Below, in pieces: positions 1-7,909 of a stretch of DNA of 7,909 nucleotides. Each line of letters opens with the position of its first letter. The first letter of the stretch is position 1. The notes below the pieces were generated by a model. It searched no databases and had not been told where the DNA came from. It saw nothing but the letters and a program-made list of their open reading frames with translations. The translations under genes and the position numbers were made by a program. The DNA is from a virus (lineage: Duplodnaviria > Heunggongvirae > Uroviricota > Caudoviricetes): positions 1-7,909 of IMG/VR virus record IMGVR_UViG_2778261498_000001. One strand, written 5' to 3'.

Positions 1-2337
1 GGCGCGCCGTTCCGCTACAGCTTCAGCGCCCTGAAGGACCGCCATAATGCCGTTGAGGTGAACTGGATTGACCCGGACAACGGCTGGGAGACGGCGACAG
101 AGCTTGTGGAGGACACGCAGGCCATTGCCCGTTACGGTCGTAACGTCACGAAGATGGATGCCTTTGGCTGTACCAGTCGGGGGCAGGCACACCGCGCCGG
201 GCTGTGGCTGATTAAAACAGAACTGCTGGAAACGCAGACCGTGGATTTCAGCGTCGGCGCAGAAGGGCTTCGCCATGTACCGGGCGATGTTATTGAAATC
301 TGTGATGATGACTATGCCGGTATCAGCACCGGTGGTCGTGTGCTGGCGGTGAACAGCCAGACCCGGACGCTGACGCTCGACCGTGAAATCACGCTGCCAT
401 CCTCCGGTACCACGCTGATAAGCCTGGTTGACGGAAGTGGCAATCCGGTGAGTGTGGAGGTCCAGTCCGTCACCGACGGCGTGAAGGTGAAAGTGAGCCG
501 GGTTCCTGATGGCGTTGCCGAGTACAGCGTGTGGGGGCTGAAGCTGCCGACGCTGCGCCAGCGCCTGTTCCGCTGCGTGAGTATCCGTGAGAATGACGAC
601 GGCACGTATGCCATCACCGCTGTGCAGCATGTGCCGGAGAAAGAGGCCATCGTGGATAACGGGGCGCACTTTGACGGCGACCAGAGCGGCACGGTGAATG
701 GTGTCACGCCGCCAGCAGTGCAGCACCTGACCGCAGAAGTCACCGCAGACAGCGGGGAATACCAGGTGCTGGCGCGCTGGGATACGCCGAAGGTGGTGAA
801 GGGTGTGAGCTTTATGCTTCGCCTGACCGTGGCAGCGGATGACGGCAGTGAGCGGCTGGTCAGCACGGCCCGGACGACGGAAACCACATACCGATTCACG
901 CAACTGGCGCTGGGAAACTACAGGCTGACAGTCCGGGCGGTAAATGCGTGGGGGCAGCAGGGCGATCCGGCATCGGTATCGTTCCGGATTGCCGCACCTG
1001 CAGTGCCGTCGCGGATTGAGCTGACGCCGGGCTATTTTCAGATAACTGCCACGCCGCATCTTGCGGTTTATGATCCGACGGTACAGTTTGAGTTCTGGTT
1101 CTCGGAAACGCGGATTACCGATATCAGGCAGGTTGAAACCACAGCGCGCTATCTTGGCACGGCGCTGTACTGGATAGCTGCCAGTATCAATATCAGGCCG
1201 GGCCATGATTATTATTTTTACATCCGCAGTGTGAACACCGTTGGCAAATCGGCATTTGTGGAGGCTGTTGGCCAGCCGAGTGATGACGCATCCGGCTATC
1301 TGGATTTTTTCAAAGGAGAGATAGGGAAAACCCATCTGGCTCAGGAGTTGTGGACGCAGATTGATAACGGTCAGCTTGCGCCTGACCTGGCTGAAATCAG
1401 GACGTCCATTACGGGTGTCAGCAATGAAATCACGCAGACCGTCAATAAGAAACTGGAAGACCAGAGTGCAGCGATCCAGCAGATACAGAAGGTTCAGGTT
1501 GATACAAATAATAACCTGAACAGCATGTGGGCTGTGAAGCTGCAGCAGATGCAGGACGGACGCCTTTATATCGCGGGTATCGGTGCCGGTATTGAGAACA
1601 CCCCCGACGGTATGCAGAGTCAGGTGCTGCTGGCGGCAGACAGGATTGCGATGATTAATCCTGCGAATGGCAACACAAAGCCGATGTTTGTTGGTCAGGG
1701 CGATCAGATATTTATGAATGAAGTGTTCCTGAAATATCTGACGGCTCCCACCATTACCAGCGGCGGTAATCCTCCGGCATTTTCCCTGACACCGGACGGG
1801 CGGCTGACGGCAAAAAATGCCGATATCAGCGGTAACGTGAATGCGAACTCCGGGACGCTCAACAACGTCACGATTAACGAGAACTGCCGGGTTCTGGGAA
1901 AACTGTCCGCGAACCAGATTGAAGGTGATCTCGTTAAAACAGTGGGCAAAGCTTTCCCCCGTGACTCCCGTGCACCGGAACGGTGGCCATCAGGGACCAT
2001 TACCGTCAGGGTTTATGACGATCAGCCGTTTGACCGGCAAATTGTTATTCCGGCGGTGGCTTTCAGCGGTGCCAGACATGAACGGGAGAATAGCGATACT
2101 TATTCGTCATGCCGCCTGATAGTGAAGAAAAACGGGGCTGAAATTTATAACCGAACGGCTCTGGATAATACTCTGATTTACACGGGTGTTATTGATATGC
2201 CTGCAGGCAGTGGCGTAATGACACTGGAGTTTTCGGTATCAGCATGGTGGGTAAATGGCTGGTATCCCACAGCAAGTATCAGCGATTTGCTGGTTGTGGT
2301 GATGAAGAAAGCCACCGCAGGCATCAGTATCAGCTGA
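1..2337 (+). CDS. J: Host specificity (central tail fibre / tip) protein J, C-terminal ~779 codons; 5' end lies upstream of the window
   Basis: Frame 1 is open from base 1 to the TGA at 2335-2337, so the ATG at 58 is internal. The translation is long and non-repetitive and matches what I recall of lambda J, including its C-terminal receptor-recognition segment (…[13 protein letters not shown]). Immunoglobulin/fibronectin-like segments also appear, e.g. …[24 protein letters not shown]…. Confidence 0.9.
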
Positions 2338-2356
2338 ATTTTATAACCCCAATACG

Positions 2357-2383
2357 GGCGTCAGAAATGACGCCTTTTTTATT
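2357..2383 (+). terminator. Intrinsic terminator downstream of J
   Basis: Stem GGCGTCA (2357-2363), loop GAAA, stem TGACGCC (2368-2374), followed directly by TTTTTTATT. It starts 20 bp after the J stop codon. Confidence 0.65.
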
Positions 2384-2404
2384 GCAGAAAAGCGAGAGGT
2401 AATT

Positions 2405-3004
2405 ATGCGTAAATTATGTGCTGTTATTCTGTCCGCAGTAGTCTGGCTGGTTGCCGCTGGTACGCCAGCGAGCGCAGCAGAGCATCAGTCCACACTAAGC
2501 GCCGGGTATCTTCAGGCCCATACTGATATGCCAGGCAGTGATGACCTGAAGGGCATTAACGTGAAATACCGTTATGAATTTACGGACACGCTGGGGCTGG
2601 TGACGTCATTCAGTTATGCCAATGCCAAAGATGAGCAAAAAACGCATTACAGCGATACCCGCTGGCATGAAGATTCAGTGCGTAACCGCTGGTTCAGCAT
2701 GATGGCGGGGCCATCTGTACGCGTGAATGAATGGTTCAGTGCTTATGCGATGGCAGGTGTGGCTTACAGCCGTGTTTCGACGTTCTCCGGGGATTATCTC
2801 CGCGTAACTGACAACAAGGGGAAAACGCACGATGTGCTGACCGGAAGTGATGACGATCGCCACAGCAACACGTCTCTGGCGTGGGGAGCTGGCGTGCAGT
2901 TTAACCCGACCGAATCCGTGGCCATTGATATTGCTTATGAAGGCTCCGGCAGTGGCGACTGGCGCACTGACGGTTTCATCGTGGGTGTCGGTTATAAGTT
3001 CTGA
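2405..3004 (+). CDS. lom: Ail/Lom/PagC-family outer membrane beta-barrel protein (lambda Lom homologue)
   Basis: 199-aa ORF with an N-terminal signal peptide (MRKLCAVILSAVVWLVAAGTPASA/AE). Alternating hydrophobic beta-strand pattern and a C-terminal …GSGSGDWRTDGFIVGVGYKF ending in aromatic-X-Phe, as in lambda Lom. GAGAGG Shine-Dalgarno about 7 nt upstream of the ATG. Position between J and stf matches lambda. Confidence 0.9.
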   Translation: MRKLCAVILSAVVWLVAAGTPASAAEHQSTLSAGYLQAHTDMPGSDDLKGINVKYRYEFTDTLGLVTSFSYANAKDEQKTHYSDTRWHEDSVRNRWFSMMAGPSVRVNEWFSAYAMAGVAYSRVSTFSGDYLRVTDNKGKTHDVLTGSDDDRHSNTSLAWGAGVQFNPTESVAIDIAYEGSGSGDWRTDGFIVGVGYKF

Positions 3005-3031
3005 TTAGCCAGGTAACACAGTGTTATGACA

Positions 3032-3060
3032 GCCCGCCGGTTCAGGCGGGCTTTTTTGTG
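3032..3060 (+). terminator. Intrinsic terminator downstream of lom
   Basis: GCCCGCC (3032-3038), loop GGTTCA, GGCGGGC (3045-3051), then TTTTTTGTG. The T-run abuts the Shine-Dalgarno of the next gene. Confidence 0.65.
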
Positions 3061-3068
3061 GAGTGGAT

Positions 3069-5426
3069 ATGGCAGCAGTAAAAATCTCAGGTGTGCTGAA
3101 AGATGGTGCGGGAAAACCAATACAGAACTGCACTATTCAACTGAAGGCAAAGCGTAACAGCACCACGGTACTGGTGAACACGGTGGCCTCTGAAAATCCT
3201 GATGAAGCCGGGCGTTACAGTATGGACGTTGAGTATGGCCAGTACAGCGTCATCCTGCTGGTTGAAGGTTTTCCGCCTTCACATGCCGGGACCATTACCG
3301 TCTATGAAGGTTCCAGTCCGGGGACGCTGAATGATTTTCTCGGTGCCATGACGGAAGATGATGTCATGCCGGAGGCATTGCGTCGTTTTGAGGAAATGGT
3401 GGAAGAAGCGGCACGCAACGCCGAAGCCGCCTCTCAGAGCGCAGCGGCGGCAAAGAAATCCGAAACTGCAGCGGCATCATCGAAGAACGCGGCGAAAACC
3501 TCAGAAACGAATGCAGCTAACAGCGCACAGGCGGCAGCGACCTCACAGACTGCATCGGCAAACTCCGCGACAGCAGCCAAAAAATCAGAAACCAACGCGA
3601 AAAACAGCGAGACAGCCGCAAAGACGAGCGAAACCAACGCAAAGTCCAGCCAGACGGCAGCGAAGACCAGCGAAACGAATGCCAAAGCCAGTGAAACTGC
3701 GGCAAAAAACAGCCAGGTTGCAGCAGCCGAAAGCGAGAGCGCGGCAGCCGGTTCTGCGACTTCAGCAGCTGGATCAGCAACTGCTGCGGCTAACAGCCAG
3801 AAAGCTGCGAAGACGAGTGAAACTAACGCAAAGTCCAGCCAGACGGCAGCGAAGACCAGCGAAACGAATGCCAAAGCCAGCGAAACTGCGGCAAAAAACA
3901 GTCAGGATGCAGCGGCCCAAAGCGAGAGTGCCGCAGCTGGTTCTGCAAGTGCGGCAGCTAATAGCCAAAAAGCTGCAAAAACCAGTGAAACTAACGCAAA
4001 GACGAGTGAAACAAAAGCAGCAGCCAGCAAGACAGAAGCAACGTCAGCCGCAACAAGAGCAGAGAATGCAGCCCGGATTGCAGAAGATGCCGCTGATCCT
4101 GCTTCTGTCCCTCCGCTTCCTGATATCTGGCTACCCTTGAATGATTCTCTGGAAGCGATAACAGGGTATGCCCCGGGCTATAAAACAATAACCATCGGCA
4201 GTGATGAAATCACTGTACCTGTTAATGGCATATGCCAATTTAGCCGCGCTTCATCAGCAACTTATATTGATAAGTCCGGGCATATTACCGTAGCAGGTAA
4301 TAACGTTCCTCGTTTTGAAAAATATGGTTTGCTGATAGAGAATCAGCGAACAAACATGTTCGTAAATAGTTTTAATCCTGATGCGTGGAATAAAAGCGGT
4401 GGTATATCTGTAACATCATCAACAGATGAATTTGAGTTTAAATATGGACGTTTCACAGTAGGAAGTGAGATAGCAGGAACGACAACAGGGAGAAATATAT
4501 GCACAGTTGCTGGTAATAAAGGCATAGATGTGACTGGCGATGATCAATACAGTAAAGGTCCGTATGTTACCGCGTCGTTCAGGGTAAGAAGTGATCTCAA
4601 TGTTCGCGCACGTATCCGTTTTGAAGGGTATAACTCGGAAGGATACACTTTCCTTTGTGACGCCTATTTGTCATTACAGACTCATGAACTACAAATTACG
4701 GGTGGTAATGCCCAGCTATTAACAGCAAACTTTGAAATCGACCCTGGTAGTGGATGGATATATTTTCAGGCAACACTGAAATGTCTGCCAGAATGGGGAA
4801 TGGTTGGTACGCAGCTGCAAATTGCAGCCGACAGAGCAGTGGGGGCTTTTGCAACAGGTGACTGGATAGAAGTAACCACCCCGCAATTCGAGTATGGTGC
4901 CTGTGCAACTTCCTTTATCATAACGACAACAGAGCCAGCGACTCGTGCATCAGATTTATGTAAATTTCCGCTGATGAAAAATATGTATACCATGCCTTTT
5001 ACGTTCATGGTGGAAGTCCATAAAAACTGGTTTATTTCTCATAATGCTGCACCGCGAGTAATTGATACAGAAAACCATCAGTCAGGTGCTCCATTTATCA
5101 TGGGATTTGGCTCTTCTGGAACTATCAGTCAGGACGGTTATCCCTATTGTGATATAGGCGGGGCTAACCGACGTGTATATGAGTCATGCGGAGTAAGAGA
5201 TCTCGTTATGGGATTCAGGGTTAAGGCTGACGGCATGACATGCTCATTTGCAAATAAGCATATAAGCACAGAAACAAAAACAGTATGGAAATATATTCGT
5301 GAAGCTGCTGTGATTCGTATCGGGGGACAAACGACGACAGGATTACGACACCTTAATGGTCATATAAAAAACCTCCGTTTCTGGAACAGAGCATTGTCAG
5401 ATACGCAGCTTAAGGAATACGTATAA
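3069..5426 (+). CDS. stf: Mosaic side tail fibre protein: lambda Stf-like N-terminal domain, Ala/Ser/Thr-rich repeat shaft, and an unrelated lower-G+C C-terminal domain (possibly concanavalin-A/LamG-like)
   Basis: N-terminus MAAVKISGVLKDGAGKPIQNCTIQLKAKRNSTTVLVNTVASENPDEAGRYSMDVEYGQYSVILLVEGFPPSHAGTITVYEGS… matches my recollection of lambda Stf. GGAG lies 6 nt upstream of the ATG at 3069; the ORF track's GTG at 3063 is in frame but less likely. The C-terminal ~445 residues differ in composition and end in …LRHLNGHIKNLRFWNRALSDTQLKEYV, which resembles the terminal strand of LamG/ConA-like jelly-roll domains. The His-rich HxH motifs of the lambda Stf C-terminus are absent. Confidence 0.85.
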   Translation: MAAVKISGVLKDGAGKPIQNCTIQLKAKRNSTTVLVNTVASENPDEAGRYSMDVEYGQYSVILLVEGFPPSHAGTITVYEGSSPGTLNDFLGAMTEDDVMPEALRRFEEMVEEAARNAEAASQSAAAAKKSETAAASSKNAAKTSETNAANSAQAAATSQTASANSATAAKKSETNAKNSETAAKTSETNAKSSQTAAKTSETNAKASETAAKNSQVAAAESESAAAGSATSAAGSATAAANSQKAAKTSETNAKSSQTAAKTSETNAKASETAAKNSQDAAAQSESAAAGSASAAANSQKAAKTSETNAKTSETKAAASKTEATSAATRAENAARIAEDAADPASVPPLPDIWLPLNDSLEAITGYAPGYKTITIGSDEITVPVNGICQFSRASSATYIDKSGHITVAGNNVPRFEKYGLLIENQRTNMFVNSFNPDAWNKSGGISVTSSTDEFEFKYGRFTVGSEIAGTTTGRNICTVAGNKGIDVTGDDQYSKGPYVTASFRVRSDLNVRARIRFEGYNSEGYTFLCDAYLSLQTHELQITGGNAQLLTANFEIDPGSGWIYFQATLKCLPEWGMVGTQLQIAADRAVGAFATGDWIEVTTPQFEYGACATSFIITTTEPATRASDLCKFPLMKNMYTMPFTFMVEVHKNWFISHNAAPRVIDTENHQSGAPFIMGFGSSGTISQDGYPYCDIGGANRRVYESCGVRDLVMGFRVKADGMTCSFANKHISTETKTVWKYIREAAVIRIGGQTTTGLRHLNGHIKNLRFWNRALSDTQLKEYV
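3572..4010. repeat. Nested in-frame tandem repeats inside stf: 42-bp (14-aa) units inside a 189-bp (63-aa) higher-order repeat
   Basis: Peptide units AAK(T/K)SETNAK(S/A/N/T)S(Q/E)T recur many times. At DNA level, 3621-3651 (aagacgagcgaaaccaacgcaaagtccagcc) recurs at 3810-3840 (aagacgagtgaaactaacgcaaagtccagcc), an offset of exactly 189 bp, with near-identity continuing for over 120 bp. Confidence 0.8.
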
Positions 5427-5695
5427 TGCGGGATATAACATTACGATTCGATAACAGAGAACAGTTTAACGCAATTGTATATGACAGTGGCCTGTTCAGT
5501 CTTGAAGAAGAAAATGGGGTTCTTGTTGATGTTATTGGCTGCATTATTGATTACGAGGAGCCAGAAAACGAAAGATGTACAGGCATTGATCGCGGTGGTT
5601 TTTTCGTAAACATGAGGATTGTTGATGGCAGTAAAAACATATCTTCTTTAATGCCTTTCATTACGACAGATCAGCATGTAAGGACATGGGCTTAA
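5426..5695 (+). CDS. Hypothetical 89-aa acidic protein, translationally coupled to stf; function unknown (possibly fibre-associated chaperone or adaptor)
   Basis: The ATG overlaps the stf stop codon by one base (TAATG at 5424-5428). AAGGAA Shine-Dalgarno at 5412-5417, 8 nt upstream. Non-repetitive sequence with the same low G+C as its neighbours. The next gene starts 12 bp after its stop. I recognise no family. Confidence 0.55.
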   Translation: MRDITLRFDNREQFNAIVYDSGLFSLEEENGVLVDVIGCIIDYEEPENERCTGIDRGGFFVNMRIVDGSKNISSLMPFITTDQHVRTWA

Positions 5696-5707
5696 TGGAG
5701 TAAGACA

Positions 5708-6748
5708 ATGGTTACAAAAACAGTAATTCCTGATGACATCAAAACGCTAAAATCCGATGTTAGTAAACTACAAAACGATCAAGGAAGCTACGCAACAAAA
5801 TCATATGTAGACAGCAAAGATGAAACCGTTGGTGACTGGTCTGCTTCATGGTATCAGCAGGTATTGCCAACTAGCGGAGCTATATTTGGGCGAAAACTTC
5901 GCTCAACTCACAGGACGGCAGGTGTTGAGGATGCGTATTGCGAACTATACCTTAAAAAATGGATAGACAGTCCAGGGAACGCAATGGCGCGCCTTAACCT
6001 GAACGATAACGGTGAAAATATTTGCTGGGATTTTACCAACCTTTACGGCGGAACAATGATCTTCCCTGGTACTTCAGGTTATCTGAAAATGGGGAACTGT
6101 CTCATGTCGTATGGTGTGCGGGGAAGTAACGCGCTTATTAAGTTTGATAATACAGACACATTACAAATCAAATACGCTAATCATGGGTCAACCATGACAT
6201 TAAACACGCAAGGTACGGCGTATTCTGGTGTGTCGACGTTATTATGGGGAAATTCCAGTCGTCCAGTTGTTTATGAAATTAGGGATGATGGCGGGCTTTT
6301 TTTGTTTTATGCACAAAGGAACCCAGATAAAACCTATCAGCTTGAGATAAACGGGCCATGCAAGGCAACATCATTCGACCAGGTGTCGGACAGAGATCTT
6401 AAAGAAAACATTCAGGTTATTGATAATGCCACTGAGCGCATCAGATTAATGAATGGGTATACTTACCGTCTCAAGTCTAATGGTATGCCTTATGCTGGCG
6501 TTATTGCGCAAGAGGCACTTAATGCAATCCCTGAATCAGTTGGTAGCACAATAAAGTACAAGAGCGGGGACAATGGGTCTGATGGAGAAGAGGGAGAAAG
6601 ATACTATACCGTCGATTACTCAGGCGTAACGGGTTTGCTTGTTCAGGTAGCCAGAGAGTCAGACGACAGGATAACAGCACTGGAAGAAGAAAACGCAGAA
6701 TTAAGACAAAGATTATCTGCAATTGAGGCGGCGCTTGCGTCTAAATAA
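5708..6748 (+). CDS. Tail fibre / tail spike-like protein with a C-terminal intramolecular chaperone, autoproteolytic (peptidase S74-type) domain
   Basis: GGAG at 5697-5700, 7 nt upstream of the ATG. The C-terminal ~120 aa carry what I recognise as S74 hallmarks: …QV-SDRDLKENI… (Ser codon at 6386-6388; Ser/Lys dyad at the predicted self-cleavage site), …YAGVIAQEALNAIPE…, …YTVDYSGVTGLLVQVARE…, and a terminal heptad-like helix ITALEEENAELRQRLSAIEAALA. The N-terminal ~226 aa look like a short helical stretch followed by a beta-rich globular domain. Confidence 0.8.
   Translation: MVTKTVIPDDIKTLKSDVSKLQNDQGSYATKSYVDSKDETVGDWSASWYQQVLPTSGAIFGRKLRSTHRTAGVEDAYCELYLKKWIDSPGNAMARLNLNDNGENICWDFTNLYGGTMIFPGTSGYLKMGNCLMSYGVRGSNALIKFDNTDTLQIKYANHGSTMTLNTQGTAYSGVSTLLWGNSSRPVVYEIRDDGGLFLFYAQRNPDKTYQLEINGPCKATSFDQVSDRDLKENIQVIDNATERIRLMNGYTYRLKSNGMPYAGVIAQEALNAIPESVGSTIKYKSGDNGSDGEEGERYYTVDYSGVTGLLVQVARESDDRITALEEENAELRQRLSAIEAALASK
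6386..6745 (+). other. Predicted S74-type intramolecular chaperone domain, expected to be released by self-cleavage N-terminal to the Ser encoded at 6386-6388
   Basis: Motif SDRDLKENI plus the downstream conserved blocks described for the fibre-like CDS. Domain boundary is from motif position only. Confidence 0.65.
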
Positions 6749-6754
6749 TATTAA

Positions 6755-6778
6755 GGGGCCGAGCGCCCCGTTTTATTG
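6755..6778 (+). terminator. Possible weak intrinsic terminator between the fibre-like gene and the membrane-protein gene
   Basis: GGGGC (6755-6759), loop CGAGC, GCCCC (6765-6769), then GTTTTATT. The stem is short and the T-run is interrupted. Confidence 0.4.
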
Positions 6779-6790
6779 GGTAGGATGAAA

Positions 6791-7078
6791 ATGGATATAA
6801 CACCTTTCCTTCATGCGCTTTGTGCTGTGGCTGCGCAGCTACTGATTGGTCTTTTTACCGGGAACTGGGCTTACGGAGCGATAGCCGGTTGTACGTTCTT
6901 CATTGCGCGTGAACACACCCAGGCAGAATATCGCTGGATTGAAATGTTCGGGCATGGCAAGCGGATTAACATGCCGTGGTGGGGTGGTTTTGATCCACGT
7001 GCATGGGATGTGGCAAGCCTGATGGATTTTGCTGTGCCGGTGGTGGCGTGTCTGCTGATCTGGATGTTGATCCGTTAA
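6791..7078 (+). CDS. Small integral membrane protein (~95 aa, about three predicted transmembrane helices), unknown function; candidate prophage cargo gene
   Basis: Hydrophobic segments FLHALCAVAAQLLIGLFTG, WAYGAIAGCTFFIA and VASLMDFAVPVVACLLIWMLI. AGGA at 6782-6785, 5 nt upstream of the ATG at 6791; in-frame alternatives are ATG 6785 and the ORF track's TTG 6776. No lipobox. G+C is higher than the preceding two genes. It is the last gene before the att arm. Confidence 0.6.
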   Translation: MDITPFLHALCAVAAQLLIGLFTGNWAYGAIAGCTFFIAREHTQAEYRWIEMFGHGKRINMPWWGGFDPRAWDVASLMDFAVPVVACLLIWMLIR

Positions 7079-7095
7079 ATATAAAAAGTAAAAAG

Positions 7096-7127
7096 CCGCA
7101 GTAACTTGTCATGACAGGATACTGCGG
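7096..7127. other. 32-bp near-perfect palindrome 18 bp after the membrane-protein stop; terminator hairpin or protein-binding site
   Basis: CCGCAGTAACTTGTCA | TGACAGGATACTGCGG pairs at 15 of 16 positions (one A/A mismatch, one G-T wobble). Followed by TTGGCTGGTT, so no clean U-tract. Confidence 0.4.
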
Positions 7128-7341
7128 TTGGCTGGTTAACTTTCGATAGTGCGAGTATTGAATAATTTCCAGCCGTTACCGATTTTATATAACTGCAGTG
7201 GAATTATTCAACACACAGGCAAAACGGAATAAGCTGAGAAAAAAGCGTGCTTTCCCAATCTGGGGCAAATCACGTCTGAATGACACCTGAAAACAGGTGG
7301 TGGACTCAAGAAGGCTTGGAATATTCTTCTTTAATGTTATG

Positions 7342-7354
7342 TAATTCATTGATT
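7342..7354 (-). promoter_or_regulatory. IHF-consensus match in the presumptive attR P-arm
   Basis: TAATTCATTGATT fits YAANNNNTTGATW exactly (complement of WATCAANNNNTTR). It overlaps the first copy of the direct repeat TTGATTTTTCG (7349-7359). Confidence 0.4.
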
Positions 7355-7396
7355 TTTCGTGTACGATTTTAAGACATTTATTCCAAGAAAAATTTT

Positions 7397-7409
7397 TAAC
7401 TCTTTGATT
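7397..7409 (-). promoter_or_regulatory. Second IHF-consensus match in the presumptive attR P-arm
   Basis: TAACTCTTTGATT fits YAANNNNTTGATW exactly. It overlaps the second copy of TTGATTTTTCG (7404-7414), 55 bp from the first and about 20 bp from the tRNA-derived core. Confidence 0.4.
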
Positions 7410-7426
7410 TTTCGACTCTGTATCAT

Positions 7427-7488
7427 CGGTCTCGAAAACCGGAGTAGGGGCAACTCTACCGGGGGTTCAAATCCCCCTCTCTCCGCCA
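7427..7488 (+). tRNA. Partial tRNA-Ser(CGA) gene, 3' portion only (anticodon arm through CCA); presumptive att core / prophage-host junction
   Basis: CGGT-CTCGAAA-ACCGG (anticodon loop with CGA), long variable arm AGTAGGGGCAACTCTACC (class II tRNA), T-arm GGGGG-TTCAAAT-CCCCC, then acceptor 3' strand TCTCTCC-G-CCA. No complementary 5' acceptor strand (GGAGAGA) or D-arm exists upstream, so it is a fragment. It matches my recollection of the E. coli serU 3' half. Confidence 0.75.
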
Positions 7489-7770
7489 CTTTATCAATGA
7501 CTTATCTCCCGACTTCCCGCCTTGCTTTTCCTAAACAGAACAATCGTAGAATATTCTTGAAGGGTTAGATCGTCACTGTTTTCTGTTCGATACTGTGACA
7601 TTCAGCACTTGATTCGCTATGGATCTGACAGGAAGGTTTCGAGCGAAAATCTGCAATTATTCAGTCGTTTTCTTATCGGTCACCATTATTCTTTTAGACA
7701 TTGATCCTACAAAGCTGCCGCAAAGTTGGTGGTGGGAACTGAAGTTGCGTAGAGAAGGGGTCAATAATTG

Positions 7771-7809
7771 AGCAAAAAAAGGAACGCGGCCGTCAGATTA
7801 AAGCCGCGG
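7771..7809 (-). terminator. Possible intrinsic terminator on the minus strand in the flank
   Basis: On the minus strand: CGCGGC, a 12-nt loop, GCCGCG, then TTCCTTTTTTTGCTC. The stem is GC-rich with a strong T-run; the loop is long. Confidence 0.4.
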
Positions 7810-7909
7810 GACAAAGTCCATAATTTCCAAGAGTTGTTGAATTTCCCAGCTTTTTTGAAAGCCTTTGTATCATACTAACAAGTAAAAAAGGTTTAAATAC
7901 CAAAATTAA

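Follow-up and report, generated by a model that had tools for sequence, protein, structure and literature searches.

A low-G+C fibre module at the right end of a lambdoid Escherichia coli prophage and the composite side tail fibre that it probably encodes

The window described here is the whole stretch of 7,909 nucleotides (nt) that was analysed, corresponding to positions 1 to 7,909 of the IMG/VR virus record IMGVR_UViG_2778261498_000001. It represents the right end of a lambdoid Escherichia coli prophage, and matches ST131-type and other clinical chromosomes at 98-100%. On the plus strand it contains, in this order, the last 759 codons of J, lom, stf, a small open reading frame (ORF) named orf89, a second fibre gene with an S74 domain, and a hydrophobic ORF. 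This report is mainly concerned with the cassette formed by the distal part of the side tail fibre gene stf, orf89 and the second fibre gene. The features from stf onwards are listed below, with protein lengths in amino acids (aa).

3063-5426, plus strand: stf, 787 aa, composed of a virion-proximal part (3063..4112) and a tip module (4113..5426).
5426-5695, plus strand: orf89, coding for a small acidic protein of 89 aa (pI 4.4), overlapping the stf stop.
5708-6748, plus strand: second short fibre, 346 aa, with anchor peptide, variable body, S74 domain and C-terminal coiled-coil-like tail.
6755-6769, plus strand: terminator-like G+C-rich hairpin followed by a T-rich tail, identified by consensus scan and direct reading.
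6791-7078, plus strand: small membrane protein of 95 aa, counted from an ATG at 6791; a TTG at 6776 opens the ORF.

The four ORFs are uninterrupted in the window, and a full-length match to a PHROG family was obtained for each of them. An earlier note on this DNA, made from the letters alone, had described the same gene content, namely a non-lambda tip, a coupled 89-aa ORF, an S74 fibre and a membrane protein, and the description was confirmed.

The same note had placed by eye a drop in composition at about position 4090. G+C content is 0.548 for positions 1-4090 and 0.437 for positions 4091-7078, and the best single change-point falls between nt 3933, when G+C at third codon positions (GC3) within stf is considered, and nt 4179, when all bases are used. 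As none of 500 permutations of GC3 within stf matched the observed likelihood ratio, a uniform composition is refuted. GC3 values range from 0.50 to 0.64 for J, lom and the N-terminal part of stf (0.50 for the latter), and fall to 0.34 in the C-terminal part of stf, 0.34 in orf89 and 0.40 in the S74 fibre. Within stf, the G+C content is 0.545 for the virion-proximal part and 0.426 for the tip. At the protein level, the boundary corresponds to a conserved PLPDIWLP joint, located inside stf at aa 351 (nt 4113) and fitting the general form PLP[DE][IV]W[IL]P of this type of tip.

Stf follows J and lom, and its residues 5-134 match PF08400, the prophage tail fibre N-terminal domain, with an E value of 1.5e-66. 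Identity to lambda is 82% over 132 aa, and 61% to orf-401, limited to aa 5-285. The shaft (aa ~115-350) is made of Ala/Ser/Thr-rich repeats of the KTSETNAK type; tandem repeats were detected by TRF at 3603-4019, as about two copies of a 189-nt unit containing sub-repeats of 21 and 42 nt. As in the Stf/Tfa system of Ur-lambda, the gene lies after J and lom and encodes an N-terminal anchor domain and an Ala/Ser/Thr-rich shaft; unlike lambda, the window has neither the orf-314 part nor Tfa/Caudo_TAP, and its tip belongs to a different fold family. For orf-314, the distal half of lambda Stf, no counterpart was found in the window either by BLASTP (best E 1.3) or by tblastn (nothing better than E 4). 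Likewise, no ORF matched PF02413, the Tfa/Caudo_TAP family, and when lambda Tfa and a P2-type Caudo_TAP protein were compared by tblastn with the six frames of the window, only matches with E values of at least 2 were obtained. The replacement of the lambda Stf C-terminus and of tfa, as well as the lack of a Tfa-like chaperone, both previously proposed for this region, are thus borne out.

The length of the shaft varies among otherwise near-identical loci, with 171 versus 209 aligned residues. In RefSeq/PGAP records 98-100% identical to the window (loci L001 9069-11426 and L002 7069-9426), stf is either split into two pseudogene fragments labelled 'incomplete' or given as a truncated 'phage head spike fiber domain-containing protein'. 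In the window all 787 codons are read without interruption, and this annotation is probably an artefact of the repeat-rich shaft.

The tip module (Stf aa 351-787, ~437 aa) has relatives of the same length, 42-53% identical, in phage 21, Tritos, JenP1, a P2-like prophage, KS_S14 and IrisVonRoten. Residues 424-629 (nt 4332-4949) match NF048003, the GTA head spike fibre domain, with 50 bits against a cut-off of 36, and a weak phmmer match (E 0.0025) links the tip to the sequence of Rcc01080 from RcGTA (PDB 6tb9). The only confident part of the AlphaFold2 (AF2) tip model, Stf aa ~436-606, is a single beta-sandwich core, whose Foldseek neighbours are tail-fibre chains of the Pseudomonas phages Pa193 and E217, followed by carbohydrate-binding modules (CBMs). 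Sequence and model together indicate that the tip carries a beta-sandwich domain of lectin/CBM-like type, homologous to the head spike fibre of RcGTA. The window Stf does not match PF13385 (Laminin_G_3, concanavalin A-like), and homologous tips score 17.9-18.7 bits against this family, below its cut-off of 27.6; the corresponding C-terminal region of the tip is unmodelled in the AF2 prediction.

Rcc01080 (PDB 6TB9) is a single-subunit fibre of the head vertices, and binds capsular polysaccharide (PMC7296036). The domain that the two proteins have in common is placed on head vertices in RcGTA, and in the window it ends a tail fibre with lambda-type Stf anchor and shaft. By analogy with RcGTA and with the CBM-like Foldseek neighbours, we infer that the tip domain may bind polysaccharide as well.

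The start codon of orf89 and the stop codon of stf share one base (TAATG). The encoded protein belongs to phrog_1361 (E 1.9e-30), and has no match in Pfam or NCBIfam. Searches with the single sequence produced only 4 word-index matches and 6 representative clusters; the family was retrieved by a profile built from six diverse members, and consists of 372 protein clusters from Escherichia, all of about 92 aa and all described as 'hypothetical'. By tblastn, the small ORF was found in 186 phage records, including lambdoid phages, T1-like Drexlerviridae, Dhillonvirus, Queuovirinae, T5-like phages and, more weakly, rV5-like phages. When one genome per species was scanned, it was found in Escherichia only, plus one metagenome-assembled genome that is probably mis-binned. 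This protein of about 90 aa is thus very common, and is always located next to the tip.

Some of the matches to orf89 call for separate mention. Those to cadherin/Ig-repeat proteins (P0007 and P0008, E ~1e-6) were discarded as compositional, and another (P0005) is a frameshifted read of the same locus. A 64-aa E. coli protein (P0003), matching the first ~39 residues of orf89, bears in its source the name 'CP4-44 prophage; predicted disrupted hemin or colicin receptor', which suggests that a cryptic prophage retains a remnant of the cassette, under a misleading legacy name.

The second fibre gene starts at 5708 and is preceded, 7 nt before its ATG, by a GGAG Shine-Dalgarno sequence. Its product, a full-length member of phrog_4563, begins with MVTKTVIPDDIKTLK, fitting the motif M.T.T.IP.DI..LK; the anchor peptide covers aa 1-~21 (nt 5708-5770). 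PF13884 (Peptidase_S74) is matched at aa 227-278 (nt 6386-6541), with an E value of 2.4e-12 and 47.4 bits against a cut-off of 22. In endosialidase chaperone domains, a Ser/Lys dyad within an SDxxxK motif marks the cleavage site, and the sequence SDRDLK, at S227/K232 of the second fibre, fits this motif. From this motif, the mature protein is predicted to be 227 aa long and the released chaperone 119 aa.

Where the tip and orf89 are fixed at 98-100% identity, the slot of the second fibre holds at least 4 alleles or nothing: the window allele, variants 60-74% identical over the N-terminal 226 residues (anchor and body), or a quite different fibre of 227 aa, the slot being empty in other cases. 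The same anchor peptide is found on second fibres with S74, Gp34_trimer plus Tfa, or collar-type bodies.

Two further second fibres may be mentioned here. In PhiR47_1 (L003 7619-8662), the gene is interrupted by a stop at codon 295, inside the S74 domain, and is elsewhere 98-99% identical to that of the window. In the Seuratvirus VogelGryff (L126 4267-5433), the second fibre is annotated as 'putative lateral tail fiber chaperone', presumably from its S74 domain; from its likely true start it reads MAKTITNIPKDITNLK, a variant of the anchor motif.

The distribution of the cassette was evaluated on 5426 complete E. coli genomes, where the whole cassette was counted at a coverage of 80% or more. 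It is present in 84 of them, the tip and orf89 alleles of the window in 141, and the second-fibre family in 708. Among phages, a cassette 97.9% identical is carried by PhiR47_1, an induced, plaque-forming phage listed with ECOR13 as its host. Tritos, PhiR47_1, PhiR49_1, JenP1, ESCO3, a P2-like prophage, KS_S14 and IrisVonRoten have the genes in the same order, and part-length DNA and protein matches group 2G7b, HannyBb, PhiR63_1 and PhiR46_1 with Tritos and PhiR49_1. The trio of tip, small ORF and second fibre thus occurs in lambdoid, Nonagvirus/Seuratvirus, T5-like and P2-like phages, four lineages that are independent. Within 124 small-ORF loci, the tip lies upstream in 123, with the stop/start overlap conserved, and a fibre with the anchor motif lies downstream in 108, the remainder being contig ends, loci of the phage 21 type or deletions.

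The tip is mounted on at least three virion anchors: the lambda-type Stf N-domain, also found in the Nonagvirus JenP1; the N-domain of P2 gpH (PF12571 and PF03406); and the T5 LtfA type, next to LtfC. In the loci examined, each type of anchor is followed by the tip, then by an overlapping ORF of ~92 aa, then by the second fibre. The bodies of these second fibres are unrelated and their folding aids differ: those of the lambdoid, Nonagvirus and T5-like loci have an S74 domain, and the P2-like one has Gp34_trimer/gp37_trimer domains and a separate Caudo_TAP gene. The anchor peptide is nevertheless the same, the P2-like protein starting with MATVTTIPADITNLK and the T5-like one with MVTKTVIPTDITKLK, as compared with MVTKTVIPDDIKTLK in the window. 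A query made of the 44-aa anchor region retrieved 14 phage records, and the trio is present in all 8 distinct phages among them whose loci were inspected or searched. Since this anchor is common to phages with unrelated tails, and was found here only beside the tip and the small ORF, its docking partner should lie inside the module.

The base composition of the module is also constant, in lambdoid, P2-like, Nonagvirus and T5-like hosts alike: G+C content is 0.40-0.44 for the tip, 0.33-0.43 for the small ORF and 0.40-0.45 for the second fibre, in surrounding phage sequences of 0.39 or 0.52. That the module keeps its own G+C content in every carrier phage explains the drop seen within the window, and the fixed joints, PLPDIWLP on one side and the anchor of ~20 residues on the other, explain the local mosaicism. 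By sequence, the cassette is a widespread, mobile and little-studied module rather than a new system, and represents one allele of a module common to at least six coliphage groups. The earlier note had considered a new fibre-maturation arrangement, which does not agree with the presence of the same order in Tritos, 2G7b, PhiR47_1, JenP1, ESCO3 and IrisVonRoten, and of part of it in phage 21. An ordinary conserved stf/tfa pair, which the note had named as the outcome that would speak against it, is excluded as such; a milder form of this description holds, that of an ordinary conserved alternative module. Nothing on the module was found in the literature on lambdoid stf chaperones and on ECOR phages.

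A published relative is IrisVonRoten (Bas32), where AlphaFold models show a distal receptor-binding protein, Gp24, attached to a proximal fibre, Gp22 (Humolli et al. 2025, PMC11990801). A C-terminal galectin-like domain of Gp22 has been proposed as an additional receptor-binding domain (PMC11990801), and recognition of the O16 O-antigen has been suggested for the lateral fibres (PMC11990801, PMC8594841). The protein of 92 aa is not discussed in PMC11990801. The correspondence with the window extends to the whole trio: the tip of Gp22 is 51% identical over 441 aa; bas32_0023 (Gp23), 92 aa, belongs to the orf89 family and overlaps the fibre stop; Gp24 begins with the anchor MVTKTVIPTDITKLK and ends in an S74-type chaperone. 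The two loci differ in the virion anchor, which in IrisVonRoten is of the T5 LtfA/LtfC type and not a lambda Stf N-domain, and in the distal protein, a T-shaped protein of 574 aa with two domains in IrisVonRoten and a single-body fibre of 346 aa in the window.

Phage 21 (OL657228) shares with the window the lambda-type Stf N-domain and a tip of this kind (overall identity 46%), followed by a small ORF of 92 aa (32% identity) overlapping the stop, and by the membrane gene (~93% nt identity); unlike the window, it has no second fibre, and the small ORF is directly followed by the membrane gene. A parallel is offered by LtfA/LtfB of DT57C, where genetic data support the docking of the second fibre through a short, conserved N-terminal sequence and its contribution of a second specificity (PMC4728585), an arrangement that has been linked to gp14/gp15 of phiEco32 (PMC4728585, PMC10713586). 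The logic of the branched, L-shaped fibres of DT57C and DT571/2 and of the phiEco32 pair, in which an anchored first fibre bears a second one, is that of the window. However, in the portions of PMC4728585 and PMC10713586 covered by keyword, no small ORF is reported between the two fibre genes; DT57C and phiEco32 are also absent from the 14 records retrieved with the anchor query, and, as judged from this query, their docking sequences appear to differ.

Sequence comparison and analogy with these systems lead us to regard the region as the receptor-recognition end of a lambdoid phage, which probably builds a composite side fibre, serial or branched, with two receptor-binding units. In place of the lambda-type distal half of Stf and of Tfa, it has a horizontally mobile lateral-fibre module of three genes. 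The Stf N-domain and shaft would anchor the assembly to a lambda-type tail, and the tip would act both as the first glycan-binding unit and, with or without the participation of the 89-aa protein, as the site where the second fibre docks. Trimerisation of the second fibre would be aided by its own S74 domain, whose subsequent self-cleavage after Ser227 would yield a mature distal receptor-binding protein of about 227 aa. The two receptor-binding units would most likely be aimed at surface glycans, such as O-antigen. A composite fibre is favoured because the IrisVonRoten homologues are modelled as a distal receptor-binding protein on a proximal fibre, and the branched or dual-specificity adhesin advanced in the earlier note fits this comparative evidence, including the conserved anchor; the arrangement is nevertheless a common one, for which a model already exists in a relative.

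Several observations weigh against a composite fibre of this kind, or limit what can be drawn from the data. The 124 small-ORF loci come mostly from E. coli prophages that are nearly identical, and do not represent independent samples. The AF2 monomer model of the tip is poor, with a mean pLDDT of 49, its C-terminal 180 residues being unmodelled, and for orf89 no informative structural relative was found. Tritos and the P2-like locus have tips 95% identical and small ORFs 48% identical, and the opposite is seen between Tritos and PhiR49_1, where the tips are 57% and the small ORFs 97% identical; as the alleles of the small ORF follow neither neighbour consistently, the partner of this protein is not deducible from co-evolution. 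Finally, the stop at codon 295 in PhiR47_1 implies that, on at least one laboratory host, plaques can form without the second fibre, a dispensability that recalls that of Stf in laboratory lambda.

Within a composite fibre, orf89 is most likely an assembly factor or a partner of the tip. It occupies the position of a fibre chaperone, with its start overlapping the fibre stop, and persists where the second fibre is absent, as in phage 21 and in the two deletion loci L032 and L034; for these reasons, a role in assembly has a modest edge over that of a connector. According to this second possibility, orf89 would be a hinge or socket, with a role like that of T4 gp35/gp36, and would stay in the virion, the tip needing no chaperone; it agrees with the location of orf89 between the two fibre genes everywhere, and may be considered a serious, if less probable, option. 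A broader hypothesis, of somewhat lower probability and to be taken as speculative, is that the protein of ~90 aa and the conserved end of the tip form a universal plug-and-socket for any distal fibre with the IP.DI..LK motif. If so, distal receptor-binding proteins would be traded as cartridges among lambdoid, T1-like, Dhillonvirus, Queuovirinae, T5-like, P2-like and rV5-like coliphages, and the small proteins would constitute an undescribed family of connectors, offering a handle for retargeting lambda-based particles.

It could also be supposed that the second fibre is mounted on the tail tip itself and not on Stf, so that two parallel adhesins would be present, since phages commonly carry several separate sets of fibres. 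This is unlikely, as siphoviruses of the lambdoid, Nonagvirus and T5-like groups share the anchor with a P2-like myovirus, although their tail tips and baseplates are unrelated, and the anchor was found here only beside the tip and the small ORF. Least probable of all is that the cassette is inert cargo of a decaying prophage with incidentally intact frames: the two partial pseudogenes into which stf is split by RefSeq in the nearest records, one of them 100% identical to the window, the stop codon in the second fibre of PhiR47_1 and the dispensability of side fibres in laboratory lambda could be quoted in its favour, but no stop or frameshift underlies the pseudogene calls, the four ORFs being intact in the window, the cassette is 97.9% identical in an induced, plaque-forming phage, and the joints are conserved while the alleles behind them change, as would be expected if the genes were under selection.

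The composite side fibre favoured here bears on host range, as the O-antigen or capsule types within reach of a temperate coliphage are determined by its side tail fibres, and the cassette is present in prophages of clinical lineages, including ST131-type strains. In addition, the PLPDIWLP joint and the anchor of ~20 residues are natural fusion points for lambda-derived delivery particles.

The membrane gene, separated from the second fibre gene by the hairpin at 6755-6769, and located upstream of a long inverted repeat near 7095-7128, encodes a protein with two hydrophobic stretches (aa 3-27 and 71-95) and belongs to phrog_1443. Its G+C content is 0.515 and its GC3 0.535. It is found at ~93% nt identity in phage 21 and in many lambdoid phages, and occurs in about 1900 of the 5426 E. 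coli genomes. It is not beside the trio in the Nonagvirus, T5-like and P2-like loci, and accompanies fibre genes in lambdoid phages only. Because of its own composition and different distribution, it is a separate lambdoid accessory module, outside the low-G+C cassette; the earlier note was correct as to the presence of a membrane protein, and not as to its inclusion in the cassette.

Other genes were observed in the vicinity of the membrane gene at related loci. In Tritos (L004 7626-8216), a gene for a PinR-type serine recombinase lies just 3' of the fibre cassette and the membrane gene. At L032 (5973-7016), where the second fibre is deleted, an ORF of 347 aa is found beyond the membrane gene; it is similar to the last part of the N-terminal anchor region of Stf (VYEDSQPGTLNDFL, LRRF), then differs, and may be the fibre gene of a neighbouring element.

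The J fragment (58-2337) is ~97% identical to lambda J up to roughly residue 420, and then diverges, with the break near nt 1300-1330; its C-terminal receptor-binding domain is clearly unlike that of lambda. G+C content within J drops from ~0.62 to ~0.51 around nt 1050-1200. The divergence implies that the central fibre, too, has a non-lambda receptor-binding end.

Downstream, sequence shared with other phages stops near 7188, as determined by comparison with PhiR47_1. A minus-strand ORF of 54 aa (7185-7349) lies in a low-G+C stretch between this phage-shared sequence and a tRNA-like fragment; a promoter-like site (7211-7182) falls within the ORF, not upstream of its start, and nothing marks the ORF as a gene. 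No defence-system match was obtained with PADLOC for orf89, the second fibre, the membrane protein or this 54-aa ORF.

The tRNA site mentioned in the earlier note was not found as such: ARAGORN detected no complete tRNA gene in the window, which contains only a 3' tRNA-like fragment, ending with CCA, at 7434-7490, ~350 bases past the membrane ORF and with weak Rfam hits. In the ST131 strain 2822, the flank past this fragment continues to zinT. Strain GN02100 departs from the window at about the end of the fragment, the megablast match stopping at 7488, and past this point carries another element, with DUF6387, H-NS and RepL genes. As the divergence of GN02100 coincides exactly with the tRNA-like fragment, the window holds the attachment-site end of the prophage, and the fragment seems to serve more than one element as an attachment site.

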